Shown piece by piece: positions 1-4,758 of a DNA stretch of 4,758 nucleotides (the first letter of the stretch is position 1; every line of letters begins with the position of its first letter). The notes below the pieces were generated by a model. That model saw only the letters and a program-made list of their open reading frames with translations, ran no database searches and was not told the DNA's origin. The translations under genes were made by a program, and so were the position numbers. Source of the DNA: a virus (Duplodnaviria > Heunggongvirae > Uroviricota > Caudoviricetes); IMG/VR virus record IMGVR_UViG_2802429219_000009. One strand, 5' to 3'.

Positions 1-2160
1 GGTTTTCCGCCTTCACATGCCGGGACCATTACCGTCTATGAAGGTTCCAGACCAGGTACGCTGAATGATTTTCTCGGTGCCATGACGGAAGATGATGTCA
101 TGCCGGAGGCATTGCGTCGTTTTGAGGCAATGGTGGAAGAAGCGGCACGCAACGCTGAAGCCGCCTCTCAGAGCGCAGCAGCGGCAAAGAAATCCGAAAC
201 TGCAGCGGCATCATCGAAGAACGCGGCGAAAACCTCAGAAACGAATGCAGCTAACAGCGCACAGGCGGCAGCGTCCTCGCAGACTGCATCGGCAAACTCC
301 GCGACAGCAGCCAAAAAATCAGAAACCAATGCGAAAAACAGTGAGACAGCCGCAAAGACGAGCGAAACCAACGCAAAGTCCAGCCAGACGGCAGCGAAAA
401 CAAGCGAAACGAATGCCAAAGCCAGTGAAACTGCGGCGAAAAGCAGTCAGGATGCAGCAGCCGAAAGCGAGAGTGCTGCAGCTGGTTCTGCGACTTCAGC
501 AGCTGGATCAGCAACTGCTGCGGCTAACAGCCAGAAAGCCGCGAAGACGAGCGAAACTAACGCAAAGTCCAGCCAGACGGCAGCGAAGACCAGCGAAACG
601 AATGCCAAAGCCAGCGAAACTGCGGCGAAAAACAGTCAGGATGCAGCAGCCCAAAGCGAGAGTGCCGCAGCTGGTTCTGCAACAGCGGCAGCTAATAGCC
701 AAAAAGTTGCAAAAACCAGTGAAACTAACGCAAAGACGAGTGAAACAAAAGCAGCAGCCAGCGAGACAGAAGCAACGTCAGCCGCAACAAGAGCAGAGAA
801 TGCAGCCCGGATTGCAGAAGATGCCGCTGATCCTGCTTCTGTCCCTCCGCTTCCTGATATCTGGCTACCCTTGAATGATTCTCTGGAAGCGATAACAGGG
901 TATGCCCCGGGCTATAAAACAATAACCATCGGCAGTGATGAAATAACAATGCCTGTTAATGGCATATGCCAATTTAGCCGGGCTTCATCTGCAACGTATA
1001 TTGATAAGTCCGGGCATATTACCGTGGCAGGGAATAACGTTCCTCGTTTTGAAAAATATGGTTTGCTGATAGAGAATCAGCGAACAAACATGTTCGTAAA
1101 TAGTTTTAATCCTGATGCCTGGAATAAAAGCGGTGGTATATCTGTAACATCATCAACAGATGAATTTGAGTTTAAATATGGACGTTTCACGGTAGGAAGC
1201 GATATAGCAGGAACGACAACAGGGCGAAATATATGCACAGTTGCTGGTAACAAAGGCATAGATGTGACTGGCGATGATCAGTACAGTAAAGGTCCGTATG
1301 TTACCGCGTCGTTCAGGGTAAGAAGTGATCTCAATGTTCGCGCACGTATCCGTTTTGAACGATATAACTCGGAAGGATACACCTTCCTTTGCGACGCCTA
1401 TTTGTCATTACAGACCCATGAACTACAAATTACTGGTGGCAATGCCCAGCTATTAACAGCAAACTTTGAAATCGATCCAGGTAGTGGATGGATATATTTT
1501 CAGGCAACACTGAAATGTCTGCCAGAATGGGGAATGGTTGGTACGCAGCTGCAAATTGCAGCCGACAGAGCTGTGGGGTCTTTTGCAACAGGTGACTGGA
1601 TAGAAGTAACCACCCCGCAATTCGAGTATGGTGCTTGTGCAACTTCCTTCATCATAACGACAACTGAGCCAGCGACTCGTGCATCAGATTTATGTAAATT
1701 TCCGCTGATGAAAAATATGTATACCATGCCTTTTACGTTCATGGTGGAAGTCCATAAAAACTGGTTTATTTCTCATAATGCGGCACCGCGTGTCATTGAT
1801 TCAGAAAATCACCAGTCCGGAGGCCCATTTATTATGGGGTTTGGTTCTTCTGGAACTATTAGTCAGGACGGTTATTCGTATTGCGATATAGGCGGGGCTA
1901 ACCGACGTGTATATGAGTCATGCGGAGTAAGAGATCTTGTTATGGGATTCAGGGTTAAGGCTGACGGCATGACATGCTCATTTGCAAATAAGCATATAAG
2001 CACAGAAACAAAAACAGTATGGAAATATATTCGTGAAGCTGCTGTGATTCGTATCGGGGGACAAACGACGACAGGATTACGACACCTTAATGGTCATATA
2101 AAAAACCTCCGTTTCTGGAACAGAGCATTGTCAGATACGCAGCTTAAGGAATACGTATAA
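1..2160 (+). CDS. stf: Side tail fiber protein, 5'-partial (frame open from base 1; first in-window ATG at 82). Lambda Stf/StfR-like N-terminal region and Ala-rich repetitive shaft, then a different C-terminal tip ending in a LamG/concanavalin-like motif
   Basis: Frame 1 is open from nt 1 with no stop until TAA at 2158-2160. The translation begins GFPPSHAGTITVYEGSRPGTLNDFLGAMTEDD, which matches the conserved region of lambda Stf / E. coli StfR as I recall it. Residues about 30-250 are low-complexity KTSETNAK / AAxSxxAA repeats typical of Stf shafts. The C-terminus ends ...GLRHLNGHIKNLRFWNRALSDTQLKEYV, resembling the terminal strand of LamG-like jelly-roll domains. The alternate-frame and antisense ORFs over 92..949 are composition artifacts. 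Confidence 0.85.
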   Translation, partial: GFPPSHAGTITVYEGSRPGTLNDFLGAMTEDDVMPEALRRFEAMVEEAARNAEAASQSAAAAKKSETAAASSKNAAKTSETNAANSAQAAASSQTASANSATAAKKSETNAKNSETAAKTSETNAKSSQTAAKTSETNAKASETAAKSSQDAAAESESAAAGSATSAAGSATAAANSQKAAKTSETNAKSSQTAAKTSETNAKASETAAKNSQDAAAQSESAAAGSATAAANSQKVAKTSETNAKTSETKAAASETEATSAATRAENAARIAEDAADPASVPPLPDIWLPLNDSLEAITGYAPGYKTITIGSDEITMPVNGICQFSRASSATYIDKSGHITVAGNNVPRFEKYGLLIENQRTNMFVNSFNPDAWNKSGGISVTSSTDEFEFKYGRFTVGSDIAGTTTGRNICTVAGNKGIDVTGDDQYSKGPYVTASFRVRSDLNVRARIRFERYNSEGYTFLCDAYLSLQTHELQITGGNAQLLTANFEIDPGSGWIYFQATLKCLPEWGMVGTQLQIAADRAVGSFATGDWIEVTTPQFEYGACATSFIITTTEPATRASDLCKFPLMKNMYTMPFTFMVEVHKNWFISHNAAPRVIDSENHQSGGPFIMGFGSSGTISQDGYSYCDIGGANRRVYESCGVRDLVMGFRVKADGMTCSFANKHISTETKTVWKYIREAAVIRIGGQTTTGLRHLNGHIKNLRFWNRALSDTQLKEYV
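352..750 (+). repeat. In-frame tandem coding duplication in the fiber shaft: copy A 352..540 (189 bp), copy B 541..708 (168 bp), then a diverged partial third copy from 709. Copy A also carries an internal 21-bp duplication (481..501 and 502..522)
   Basis: Read directly: gcaaagacgagcgaaaccaacgcaaagtccagccagacggcagcg... at 352 recurs as gcgaagacgagcgaaactaacgcaaagtccagccagacggcagcg... at 541 with only scattered substitutions. The protein-level copies are AKTSETNAKSSQTAAKTSETNAKASETAAKSSQDAAAESESAAAGSAT(SAAGSAT)AAANSQKA and AKTSETNAKSSQTAAKTSETNAKASETAAKNSQDAAAQSESAAAGSATAAANSQKV. Confidence 0.8.
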
Positions 2161-2429
2161 TGCGGGATATAACATTACGATTCGATAACAGAGAACAGTT
2201 TAACGCAATTGTATATGACAGTGGCCTGTTCAGTCTTGAAGAAGAAAACGGGGTTCTTGTTGATGTTATTGGCTGCGTTATCGATTACGAGGAGCCAGAA
2301 AACGAAAGATGTACAGGCATTGATCGCGGTGGTTTTTTCGTAAATATGAGGATCGTTGATAGCAGTAAAAATATATCTTCTTTAATGCCTTTCATTACGA
2401 CAGATCAGCATGTAAGGACATGGGCTTAA
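2160..2429 (+). CDS. Hypothetical small acidic protein (89 aa), translationally coupled to the tail fiber gene; function unknown
   Basis: ATG at 2160 overlaps the stf stop (TAATG). AAGGA at 2146-2150 lies 9 nt upstream of the ATG. The ORF is co-directional and tightly packed with its neighbours, with no hydrophobic segment. I recognise no family by eye. Confidence 0.55.
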   Translation: MRDITLRFDNREQFNAIVYDSGLFSLEEENGVLVDVIGCVIDYEEPENERCTGIDRGGFFVNMRIVDSSKNISSLMPFITTDQHVRTWA

Positions 2430-2441
2430 TGGAGTAAGACA

Positions 2442-3125
2442 ATGGTTACAAAAACAGTAATTCCGGGAGACATCACCACGCTAAAGGGAGATATTTCCTC
2501 AATTAACGGAAAAGTATCAACGCTTCAGACTGAGATGACCAGTGCAAAGCAGGATATCAGCTCCAGATACACAAAAACTGAAGTTGATAATAAGCTGAAA
2601 AACAAAGTGGAAGTGAACGATCTGGAAAGTGGTCGTTATGGCGGAGATTTTTATCCACTGACAGGTCGTGAAGCGTTTTATTTATGGAATTTGGCCACGA
2701 CTACAGCGGCGGCAAACCTTTATCTTAATCCTGACCCCGCAATTTCGTCTGTGCTGCGGTCAACATCGTCTATCCGCTATAAACATTCAGTAGAGACAAT
2801 AGATTCAGAGCACGCTGATCTCATTTTCAGGATGCGCCCTGTGTGGTACAGGTCACAATGCGAAAATGACAGGCGTGACTGGGGATTCTACGGATTGATT
2901 GCCGAGGAAGTAGGAGAAATTGCCCCTCAGTTTGTACACTGGCGACCAGCTAACGAAGATGATGCACCGGAAGCTATTTCCAGCAATGGCCTTGTTGCCG
3001 AAGGTGTAATGTACGAACGTCTGGTTGTTCCACTGATTCACCATATCCAGAAGCTGACTGAAAGAGTTGATGAACTTGAGTCAGAATTAAAGTTGTTATC
3101 CGTTTCCCGAAGCGATATCGGATAA
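2442..3125 (+). CDS. Tail fiber-like protein (227 aa) with an N-terminal coiled-coil-like segment and a C-terminal intramolecular chaperone domain (peptidase S74 / endosialidase-chaperone type)
   Basis: GGAG at 2431-2434 lies 7 nt upstream of the ATG at 2442. Residues about 105-220 (nt about 2754-3101) read SSIRYKHSVETIDSEHADLIFRMRPVWYRS...WGFYGLIAEEVGEIAPQFVHW...GLVAEGVMYERLVVPLIHHIQKLTERVDELESELKLL. This follows the S74 chaperone pattern (S-D-x-R-x-K-x-N-I ... P-V-x-Y ... G-F-I-A-Q-E-V ... Y-x-x-L-I-P-L-L-I-x-A-I-x-E-L ... coiled coil) recalled from endosialidase and T5 L-shaped fiber C-termini. Confidence 0.8.
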   Translation: MVTKTVIPGDITTLKGDISSINGKVSTLQTEMTSAKQDISSRYTKTEVDNKLKNKVEVNDLESGRYGGDFYPLTGREAFYLWNLATTTAAANLYLNPDPAISSVLRSTSSIRYKHSVETIDSEHADLIFRMRPVWYRSQCENDRRDWGFYGLIAEEVGEIAPQFVHWRPANEDDAPEAISSNGLVAEGVMYERLVVPLIHHIQKLTERVDELESELKLLSVSRSDIG

Positions 3126-3135
3126 AGGAGGAGTA

Positions 3136-3429
3136 ATGGATATAACACCTTTCCTTCATGCACTTTGTGCTGTGGCTGCGCAGGTACTGATTGGCCTTTT
3201 TACCGGAAACTGGGTTTACGGTGCGATAGCTGGTTGTACGTTCTTCATTGCGCGTGAACACACCCAGGCAGAATATCGCTGGATTGAAATGTTCGGGCAT
3301 GGCAAGCGGATTAACATGCCGTGGTGGGGCGGTTTTGATCCGCGTGTTTGGGATGTGGCAAGCCTGATAGATTTTGCTGTGCCGGTGGTGGCGTGTCTGC
3401 TGGTCTGGCTGTTGGTTAATCGTGGGTGA
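3136..3429 (+). CDS. Small hydrophobic membrane protein (97 aa, 2-3 predicted transmembrane segments), function unknown; candidate lysogenic-conversion or superinfection-exclusion gene
   Basis: A strong RBS (AAGGAGG at about 3125-3131) lies 5-6 nt upstream of the ATG at 3136. There are hydrophobic stretches at residues about 6-38 (FLHALCAVAAQVLIGLFTGNWVYGAIAGCTFFIA) and about 74-94 (VASLIDFAVPVVACLLVWLLV). It is the last gene of the co-directional block. Confidence 0.7.
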   Translation: MDITPFLHALCAVAAQVLIGLFTGNWVYGAIAGCTFFIAREHTQAEYRWIEMFGHGKRINMPWWGGFDPRVWDVASLIDFAVPVVACLLVWLLVNRG

Positions 3430-3439
3430 AAAAAGGTGA

Positions 3440-3559
3440 GCTGTATATGCAACGGAGGAAGAAACCCCGTTGCTGGAAGCCAGGAAAAAGTATCGGGTGT
3501 TGCTGAACCGTGTTGATACGTCAACTGCACAGGATATTGAATGGCCAGCACTGCCGTAG
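3440..3559 (+). pseudogene. tfa: 3' relic of a tail fiber assembly (tfa) gene: a start-less 39-codon frame encoding the conserved Tfa C-terminus
   Basis: Frame 2 is open only from 3440 (preceded by an in-frame TGA at 3437-3439) to TAG at 3557-3559 and encodes [39 protein letters not shown]. The motif [11 protein letters not shown]-x-A-x-DIEWP is the conserved C-terminal signature of Tfa/U-type tail fiber assembly proteins as I recall them. There is no ATG and nothing upstream to complete a full-length tfa. Confidence 0.6.
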
Positions 3560-3656
3560 GGTAAAACATATAAATTCTATAATTAGATGTATCTTTCCAT
3601 TTACGGCAAGGAAGGGGGCTTGGAAGACGTAAAGCATCTCACACCGAGATTATTTT

Positions 3657-4247
3657 TTATATGTCAGGTGTCTGAAGTTTTGCTTTGGCTCTTAAAATGG
3701 TTTGCCGCGAGGTTTTGAATTCCCGGGCAATGGCACTTATACTTACACCTGACTTAATCCGTTCGAATACCACCTGTTTCTGTTCTTCATTTAACACAGG
3801 TGGTCGACCAAAACGTTTCCCTGCGCCCCGGGCTCTTACTATCCCGGAATGAGTGCGTTCAAGTAAAAGGTCTCGTTCAAATTCAGCGACTGCTGAAATT
3901 ACTTGCATCATCATTTTTCCTGTTGGACTGGTCAGGTCAATGCCCCCCAATGCTAAGCAATGCACTCTGATACCTGTTTCGGTCAGTTGTTCCACTGTTT
4001 TCCTGATATCCATTGCATTACAACCAAGGCGATCCAATTTTGTCACAATCAATTGATCACCACATTTCAGGCGAGCAAGCAACCGGTTAAAACCAGGACG
4101 CTCACTGGTTGCTGCTGAGCCGCTAATGTGTTCTTCGATTATTTGCTGAGGTTTGATTTTAAAACCTGCACTTTCGATTTCCCGGCGTTGATTTTCGGTG
4201 GTCTGATCCAGCGTTGATATCCGACAGTAAGCAAAAATTCGAGACAT
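3657..4247 (-). CDS. pinR: Serine recombinase / DNA invertase of the Pin family (PinR/PinQ-like), 196 aa
   Basis: Intact 196-aa ORF on the - strand. The N-terminus [15 protein letters not shown] carries the catalytic-serine motif of resolvase/invertase-type serine recombinases (Ser at position 11), and the C-terminus has an HTH-like segment ([21 protein letters not shown]). From memory this is essentially the E. coli cryptic-prophage PinR/PinQ sequence; I cannot distinguish pinR from pinQ here. Its placement convergent to the stf/tfa genes matches Rac/Qin/e14 organisation. Confidence 0.92.
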
Positions 4248-4340
4248 AGTGAGACTCTATACGAAATTGGTGTTCATATCATAATGCATCTCAGAAAATA
4301 ATTTTGATTATTTTTGTGCATATTTGTATGTGCACGTTCG
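4248..4340 (-). promoter_or_regulatory. Putative pin promoter/leader region in AT-rich DNA (candidate -10 TATGAT on the - strand, + coordinates 4278-4283; no convincing -35 found)
   Basis: This is the non-coding stretch immediately upstream of the pin start codon, and it has a weak RBS (AGAG). Only a -10-like hexamer was identified by eye, so this is a low-confidence positional inference. Confidence 0.3.
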
Positions 4341-4696
4341 AAAATAAACGAATGCGTATGCAACCCCGTAATTTTGGTGAGACCCAAAATCGATTTTGTG
4401 AAAAATGGCTTTAACTCGGTTTGTTTTTCGAGTTCCGGGCGGACTCAAGGAAGAAGAATAGTGTTGCGTGTTATTTTAACCAGATTTCAAGTTGTTTGGT
4501 CGTGGAAAAGTGGAGCAAAATGTTGTTAAAGTGGAAAAATGATAAAAAAGTAAGTTTATTATATTACATTTTACCATTTAAATTTTGGTTGTCTTTAAGA
4601 ACTGATATCGCTGTTTGTAATAATTCTTTGTTGAGCTGGCCCCCTGAAATACCAGACAGTAGATGTATCTTAAAATAAGAGATAGGCTTGGATATA

Positions 4697-4758
4697 TGTC
4701 TAACACTAGTTCTAATTTTGAGATGGCTGGCGTTTTGTTAGGAAAAGAGGTGCGTAAA
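4697..4758 (+). CDS. Possible 5' end of a + strand ORF running out of the window (MSNTSSNFEMAGVLLGKEVRK...)
   Basis: ATG at 4697 is preceded by AAGAGATAGG about 8 nt upstream, and the frame stays open to the window end. It is only 20 codons and AT-rich, so this is speculative. Confidence 0.2.

Follow-up and report, generated by a model that had tools for sequence, protein, structure and literature searches.

A truncated tfa fragment next to pinQ is probably an old scar inherited with a widespread Escherichia tail-fibre module

We analyzed a stretch of 4,758 nucleotides, hereafter the window, which forms the right end of a lambdoid prophage located at the E. coli Qin (ydfJ) site. ECAMP047 is 99.9% identical to window positions 1-4632 and carries a complete tail gene set. 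The window contains the following features.

1-746, plus strand: N-terminal and Ala/Ser-rich repeat part of stf, common to many stf alleles; the ORF runs in from the left edge of the window
798-2160, plus strand: distal (tip) part of stf, GTA-head-spike-fibre/LamG-like family (NF048003, phrog_1419)
2160-2429, plus strand: 89-aa gene whose start overlaps the stf stop codon (TAATG); phrog_1361
2442-3125, plus strand: gene of a 227-aa mini-fibre protein with a C-terminal S74 intramolecular chaperone domain
3136-3429, plus strand: gene of a 97-aa predicted membrane protein, the final gene of the fibre module; stop codon at 3427-3429
3430-3436, plus strand: A-run (AAAAAAG) at the junction, between the end of the module and tfa-derived DNA
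3437-3559, plus strand: tfa relic, tfa nt 453-576 with a 1-nt deletion at ~3448; open frame at 3440-3559
3560-3656, no strand assigned: spacer from the relic to the pin stop codon, as in K-12 Rac and Qin (98-99% identity)
3657-4247, minus strand: pinQ, 196-aa serine recombinase belonging to the DNA-invertase family; intact and oriented convergently to the fibre operon
4564-4758, minus strand: start of ydfK, the cold-shock gene of the Qin/Rac right end, clipped by the window edge (coordinates from the ECAMP047 annotation)

The Stf protein as a whole matches phrog_1419 (E 0), with residues 1-39 matching Pfam phage_tail_N and residues 329-534 matching NCBIfam NF048003 (GTA_spike_fiber). Its proximal part is 92-93% identical to that of AS19 and Ecol_656, and homology to both ends at position 746. 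The tip allele is common to phage PhiR55_1 and to ETEC4077 (97.6% identity over window positions 798-2485), while at the level of the family the tip starts at ~841-847 and shows 65-74% identity to the tips of phage 21 and AS19. The Ala/Ser/Thr-rich region of stf contains an internal tandem duplication (318-567 versus 507-735, ~80% identity). PGAP breaks the stf of AS19 and ECAMP047 into pseudogene pieces; the frame is continuous across the window.

The 89-aa protein belongs to a family of unknown function (phrog_1361, E 1e-30) and has no Caudo_TAP match in a Pfam search. Small ORFs of this type always accompany the GTA-spike/LamG tip family and co-vary with the tip type in the 96 junction loci described below, and we regard the protein as a putative dedicated assembly factor of the stf tip. 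The 227-aa protein contains a Peptidase_S74 domain (Pfam, residues 109-165, E 7e-6) and also matches the C-terminus of phrog_3299. Compared with the 346-aa alleles that occur elsewhere, its gene has only the stretch 2423-2485 in common. Within the protein, only the first ~15 codons (2442-2485) are shared with the 346-aa alleles of Tritos, A10 and ETEC4077, and an S-x-x-R-x-K-like motif (SSIRYK) is found where the S74 domain begins. The protein may represent a small branch fibre with a conserved N-terminal anchor and an exchangeable remainder. The 97-aa protein matches a further family of unknown function (phrog_1443, E 3e-58) and no entry in Pfam, NCBIfam or PADLOC. A defence-system identity of the 89-, 227- or 97-aa protein or of pin was considered and rejected for lack of any PADLOC match. 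The invertase gene is annotated as pinQ, and its product matches Pfam Resolvase (E 2.5e-36) and HTH_7 (E 3.8e-11). Homology to K-12, AS19, ECAMP047 and Tritos stops at 4632, within ydfK, and the last 126 bases (4633-4758) would represent either another 5' allele of ydfK or another neighbour. With stf, a coupled ~90-aa ORF and a terminal ~97-aa membrane protein gene, the window fits a lambdoid GTA-spike/LamG module (phrog_1419, phrog_1361 and phrog_1443), and the same module order is present in phage 21, Tritos, PhiR55_1 and many prophages.

A sequence-only reading of the window had proposed that a start-less frame behind the 97-aa gene encodes the conserved C-terminus of the tail fibre assembly protein Tfa, and this observation is confirmed. 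The frame opens behind a TGA (3437-3439), runs through 39 sense codons (3440-3556) and closes with a TAG (3557-3559). It begins 11 nt after the stop codon of the 97-aa gene, and translation of 3398-3559 returned the protein sequence given earlier. As had been claimed, an upstream in-frame start does not exist, since the TGA closes the frame and ATG or GTG are absent from it. A TTG at 3470 is the sole start-like codon; initiation there would yield 29 aa, and the same TTG occurs inside intact tfa genes. The 39 residues match positions 95-130/131 of Pfam PF02413 (Caudo_TAP) with an E value of 6.1e-14 and 52.7 bits (cut-off 22.1 bits), and they also match several PHROG families of tail fibre assembly proteins. 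At the nucleotide level, window positions 3448-4632 are 98.99% identical to the 3' end of tfaR, the spacer, pinR and ydfK of K-12 Rac. In a local alignment, tfa-derived DNA starts at 3437/3438 (tfa nt 453/454): window positions 3438-3448 cover tfa nt 454-464 but lack one base, and 3448-3559 cover tfaR nt 465-576. Because one base is missing at ~3448, the open frame starts with three codons ('AVY') that are off the ancestral tfa frame. Judging from these alignments, the 120-base frame is confirmed as a real truncated tfa, with a match far beyond chance. It is also already known as such: PGAP/RefSeq label the same bases in AS19 and ECAMP047 as a partial pseudogene ('tail fiber assembly protein, incomplete, missing N-terminus'). 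Compared with TfaR and TfaQ (Rac and Qin) and with lambda Tfa, the last 37 codons and the stop codon are homologous, and the spacer and the pin gene are the same; in contrast to these genes the relic retains only tfa nt 453-576, lacks a start and is therefore a pseudogene and not a member gene.

In Tfa the fibre-binding domain at the N-terminus is variable, and the helical domain at the C-terminus is conserved (PMC9608196). A complete Tfa ORF comprises a start codon and ~175-195 aa, and the 39 codons that remain here contain nothing of the N-terminal domain. The C-terminal domain (TfaR 127-191, which aligns with Mu U 113-174) is represented by the last ~40 of its ~65 residues, and its first helix (TfaR 127-152) is missing. 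In addition, the conserved Trp of the Tfa EAWKKYR motif is changed to Arg by a TGG to AGG substitution at window position 3483. At least 20 copies besides that of the window have this Arg, the substitution being shared by AS19 and the phage 21-type copies; others retain the Trp. Further copies of the relic have a Leu at the conserved Trp or an L-to-R change nearby, and one has a premature stop. The gene on the 5' side of the relic is that of the 97-aa membrane protein and not a Tfa-dependent fibre gene of the gp37-like type (Collar/Phage_fiber).

The 97-aa gene also exists in alleles that are not followed by a relic. These relic-less alleles encode 95 aa ending in ...LIR*, with a hairpin directly 3' of the stop codon (locus L007, 6024-6059; also L008, L010 and L013; -25.3 kcal/mol, z -4.4). 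As the U-run of the hairpin lies on the opposite strand, the structure is likely a terminator of convergent genes. This terminus was found in 97 genomes, and the hairpin is absent from all relic-bearing copies, whose 97-aa gene is the allele ending in ...VNRG*. BLAST homology of the window to relic-less alleles ends at 3414 because of small indels. We rejected 3414 as the junction: the two types of ends, ...WLLVNRG* and ...WLLIR*, can be aligned up to the stop codon and the A-run. Identity over the gene body fails to separate relic-linked from relic-less alleles. Since homology to the relic-less alleles fades by the A-run and tfa DNA follows AAAAAAG, the join lies at ~3430-3437, so that only a few nucleotides separate the truncation point of tfa from the 97-aa gene, as had been supposed earlier. 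The inducible phage PhiR55_1 (recorded host E. coli C) carries window positions 1-3414 at 97.9% identity with a relic-less allele that ends in the hairpin, followed by dinI and an integrase gene. The gene array thus exists independently of any tfa scar. We found no literature on PhiR phages. In ETEC4077 and NRZ99027-2 the relic-less module is followed by genes for a reverse transcriptase and a SLATT-domain protein and by dinI (L007, 6123-8022; L010, 4897-6796); the two genes at the prophage end look like a retron- or DRT-like defence moron.

Several roles of the junction region in expression were considered and rejected. Terminator-like sites are absent from positions 3000-4758 and folding of the spacer is unremarkable (z 0.10), which argues against the relic or the spacer being a terminator. 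A fusion of the 97-aa protein to the relic by read-through or frameshifting is countered by the different frames and by the TGA at 3437-3439, which blocks the relic frame. Slippage on A AAA AAG into the relic was discarded because the run is positioned after the stop codon of the 97-aa gene.

How widespread is the junction? An 80-nt probe (3396-3475) was found at 2702 places in 1743 of the 5426 complete E. coli genomes, counts that are affected by clonal sampling of the collection. It was also present in 36 phage records, among them phage 21, Tritos, HannyBb, 'Lambda_ev' gut phages and several PhiR phages, and several of the junction-bearing PhiR phages were induced from ECOR strains. An exact 28-mer of the junction occurs in 85 IMG/VR contigs and, among one-genome-per-species representatives, in Escherichia ruysiae only. 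All loci compared have one and the same junction sequence, at sites as different as Qin (AS19), prfC (strain 631), sitABCD (CD306 and A10) and yecD-aspS (RIVM_C037166). Only 461 genomes have the pin-linked form. When 96 junction loci were inspected, the downstream region contained pin in 27, sitD in 10, dinI in one and none of these in 38, with a flank too short to tell in the remaining 20; pin was hence present in 27 of the 76 loci with enough flank. Because the same junction is found at many sites and in many genomes and phages, the scar is old and inherited with a widespread module, and does not reflect an event at the locus in the window. We infer a single ancestral event. The earlier proposal that the breakpoint was made in this pin locus is at odds with this distribution.

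In phage 21 and in many lambdoid phages of the gut, a sit operon inserted at the equivalent of window position 3505 has left only the first 23 codons of the relic. In phage 21, CD306 and many 'Lambda_ev' phages, the sitABCD iron/manganese transporter operon lies on the opposite strand as phage cargo (L019, 4610-8075; L002 and L014).

The genes upstream of the junction are not constant. At the same Qin site, AS19 has positions 1-746 (93% identity) and 2438-4632 (97%) in common with the window and differs in the stf tip and the small ORF (747-2437). ETEC4077 shares 798-2485 and 3135-3414 and carries a 346-aa S74 gene in between, whereas in phage 21 a related tip and an ORF of 92 aa are followed, without any S74 gene, by the 97-aa gene and the relic. 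Across the 96 junction loci, three tip types, different types of small ORF, three states of the S74 slot (227 aa, 346 aa or no gene) and different downstream regions (pin, sit, dinI or other) occur in many combinations, with the S74 slot assorting independently and the exact combination of the window being found in three loci. These comparisons show three units that reassort independently of each other: stf tip plus small ORF, S74 mini-fibre gene, and 97-aa gene plus relic.

Recombination is also evident within the relic itself. At least six types of tfa 3' ends follow the one constant 5' junction, with C-termini reading ...PALP, ...PTNPVRE, ...LIQP, ...PVIPEV, ...PAAPIG and ...PEEPDTM, which mirror intact tfa alleles. 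The 78 full-length copies of the relic fall into 30 haplotypes, and 53 of the 153 informative site pairs failed the four-gamete test. The minimum number of recombination events (Rm) within 113 nt is three. This fits crossovers observed between lambda and Rac, one third of the recombinants having crossed over in a region of tfa with 95% identity (PMC3945230). In the window, the visible right-hand breakpoint relative to K-12 marks only the start of the inherited scar; the crossover that placed the module beside this pin gene, if there was any, is invisible and lies to the right of 3448.

A second class of tfa relic is present in 805 of the 5426 genomes. In C10, 200088 and STEC005, a stretch of 48 nt separates the end of an S74-type stf from tfa nt 440-576. 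This relic, too, is annotated as partial tfa and continues into pinQ or other DNA, but it begins 13 nt further upstream in tfa and its upstream partner differs, being the stop codon of a 1101-1258-aa stf with a C-terminal S74 domain. Both junction classes carry a GAGCTG signature and may therefore not be independent. In the second class, stf and the relic share one reading frame that only the TGA of stf interrupts (L005, 4900-5124; L015 and L017), which may be coincidence (1 in 3) or may permit read-through.

How did the relic come to lie beside pinQ, and is it kept for a reason? The sequence-only reading regarded 830-3430 as one cassette of ~2.6 kb that had replaced the ancestral stf tip and most of tfa in this stf-tfa-pin locus and whose 3' breakpoint is the relic. 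Indeed, the stf-tfa-pin arrangement is intact at the homologous positions of K-12 Rac and Qin, whose similarity to the window is confined to 1-332 and the part from 3448 on. The relic directly adjoins the supposed cassette's last gene, and nothing between the stf repeats and the relic resembles the K-12 stfR tip or tfaR. We nevertheless consider a single replacement at this place very unlikely. The identical junction recurs in all the genomes, phages and sites listed above, mostly without pin. The interval is itself a mosaic with crossover points at 746/798, 2423-2485 and 3124-3135, so that it does not behave as one cassette: AS19 differs from the window in 747-2437 only and the parts are found in many combinations. 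Moreover, the whole active phages Tritos, HannyBb and PhiR63_1 already carry the 97-aa gene, the relic and pin, and a prophage at the Qin site can simply be such a phage. The comparison with Rac and Qin that had been suggested as a check did reveal the intact arrangement in K-12, but the same junction exists at several other sites. A left edge at ~830 is reasonable as a boundary at the family level (~841-847), whereas the actual crossover points vary with the comparator (746, 798, 955 and 1073). What was taken as direct evidence of in-situ replacement is generic tail-fibre mosaicism of a documented kind. It is conceivable, though doubtful, that the relic is kept as DNA, its ~125 nt of tfa 3' end acting as a portable right-hand homology arm for the exchange of Tfa-independent fibre modules. 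If true, modules keeping the relic could recombine with tfa in nearly every E. coli genome and spread. Relic-bearing genomes outnumber those with the relic-less hairpin by ~18 to 1 (1743 versus 97), the second junction class keeps nearly the same piece with a boundary only 13 nt apart, crossovers within the relic are demonstrable, and experimental crossovers between lambda and Rac fall in tfa (PMC3945230). However, neutral hitch-hiking with a successful module gives the same counts, sampling of the collection is clonal, and the two junction classes with their common GAGCTG signature may share an origin; it is for these reasons that we hold the idea to be tentative. In addition, phage 21-type copies without the distal half of the relic are still common.

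A function of the relic as a gene appears extremely unlikely, whether as a small protein (the TTG-initiated 29-aa peptide from the Tfa C-terminus) or as an sRNA of the IS009 type. The frame is open and its residues are conserved in most copies; selection might be behind this, but recurrent gene conversion from intact tfa genes would lead one to expect the same just as much. Against a protein speak the missing ATG or GTG, a GGAGG 11 nt from the TTG that is tfa coding sequence in intact genes, the loss of the first helix of the C-terminal domain, and the occurrence of W-to-R, W-to-L, premature-stop and shortened copies in viable phages. The candidate sRNA IS009 (Rfam RF02111) does match window positions 3365-3525 (E 3.5e-13), but its 63.5 bits fall short of the gathering score (117 bits); the relic aligns to the last ~65 positions of the model, only ~135-199 of 199 aligning well, because the model in effect represents the 3' third of tfa. 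Consistent with this, the model gives 221 bits on intact tfaR and 229.5 bits on the tfa gene of O157. The 202-bit match in K-12 is an orphan degraded tfa fragment between yagU and ykgJ (~75% identity to tfaR nt 406-519), and the CP4-6 region of K-12 was dismissed as the home of IS009 on these grounds. The matches outside the window map to L004 (4880-5078), L016 (3879-4077) and L018 (29323-29522), and 'IS009 sRNA' calls in prophage regions are to be read as tfa genes or relics. An intact invertase gene only 97 nt away raises the idea that the relic belongs to a Pin-invertible segment with an alternative fibre/tfa set, as in the Mu G, P1 C and e14 P segments. We consider the chance of this negligible: the relic and all fibre genes are on the plus strand like stf, and bracketing inverted repeats are missing, the best pair (923-940/3546-3563) extending over 18 nt with 78% identity. 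A search with a Din-type site pattern gave one match at three mismatches (0.42 expected), a result equalled by 65 of 200 shuffles. Moreover, pin is convergent with the fibre genes here, unlike the pin-type invertase genes of Mu, P1 and e14, which are divergent.

We thus consider it highly probable that the relic is a dead, non-coding 3' fragment of tfa that is explained by one old join, inheritance with the module and recombination within the relic, all three taken together. In this scenario the 3' end of a Tfa-independent fibre module would have been joined once, by an illegitimate event, to about nt 453 of tfa. The join would have cost the module its terminal hairpin and tfa its first three quarters. 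A parental pair was not found: we did not detect a 97-aa allele ending in ...VNRG* followed by the hairpin, and found no intact tfa allele with the GAGCTG signature (GTTGAGCTGGAAATC). Tfa would have been dispensable, as the upstream fibres lack a Tfa-dependent gp37-like tip, and the GTA-spike/LamG tip with its coupled 89-aa gene and the S74 mini-fibre may have taken its place. K-12 stfR, which is followed by intact tfaR, contains Collar and Phage_fiber domains, while stf genes followed by relics have tips of the S74 or LamG type; dependence on Tfa is thus correlated with the type of tip. As the loci compared here show, the unit of 97-aa gene and relic has since been passed on as the constant right end of the freely reassorting fibre modules of Escherichia lambdoid phages and prophages. 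The relic remains highly similar to live tfa genes, and homologous recombination or gene conversion in the relic and the pin region has connected the module to many downstream regions. In the window, at Qin (ydfJ), the partner appears to have been pinQ together with a K-12-type tfaQ/R 3' end. The relic is predicted to contribute nothing to fibre assembly. Overall, the earlier interpretation is partly supported, holding for the nature of the fragment and the position of its edge but not for the event that was thought to have created it.

Mosaicism of tail fibres with crossovers in stf and tfa is already established, including by experiment. Lambdoid and other phages exchange mosaic fibre modules in the same way, with crossovers in conserved stf and tfa segments (De Paepe 2014, PMC3945230), and work cited there describes exchange of fibre tip and chaperone between phages and defective prophages (Haggard-Ljungquist 1992; Sandmeier 1994). 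The locus described here is nothing new in kind and adds only one particular tfa-truncating junction that forms the fixed terminus of a very common module. For the analysis of such loci this means that the scar is a lineage marker of a fibre module present in a third of the complete E. coli genomes and in phage 21, and that it is no evidence of a local rearrangement. The separate assortment of the module parts is relevant to the prediction of host range from prophage fibre loci.
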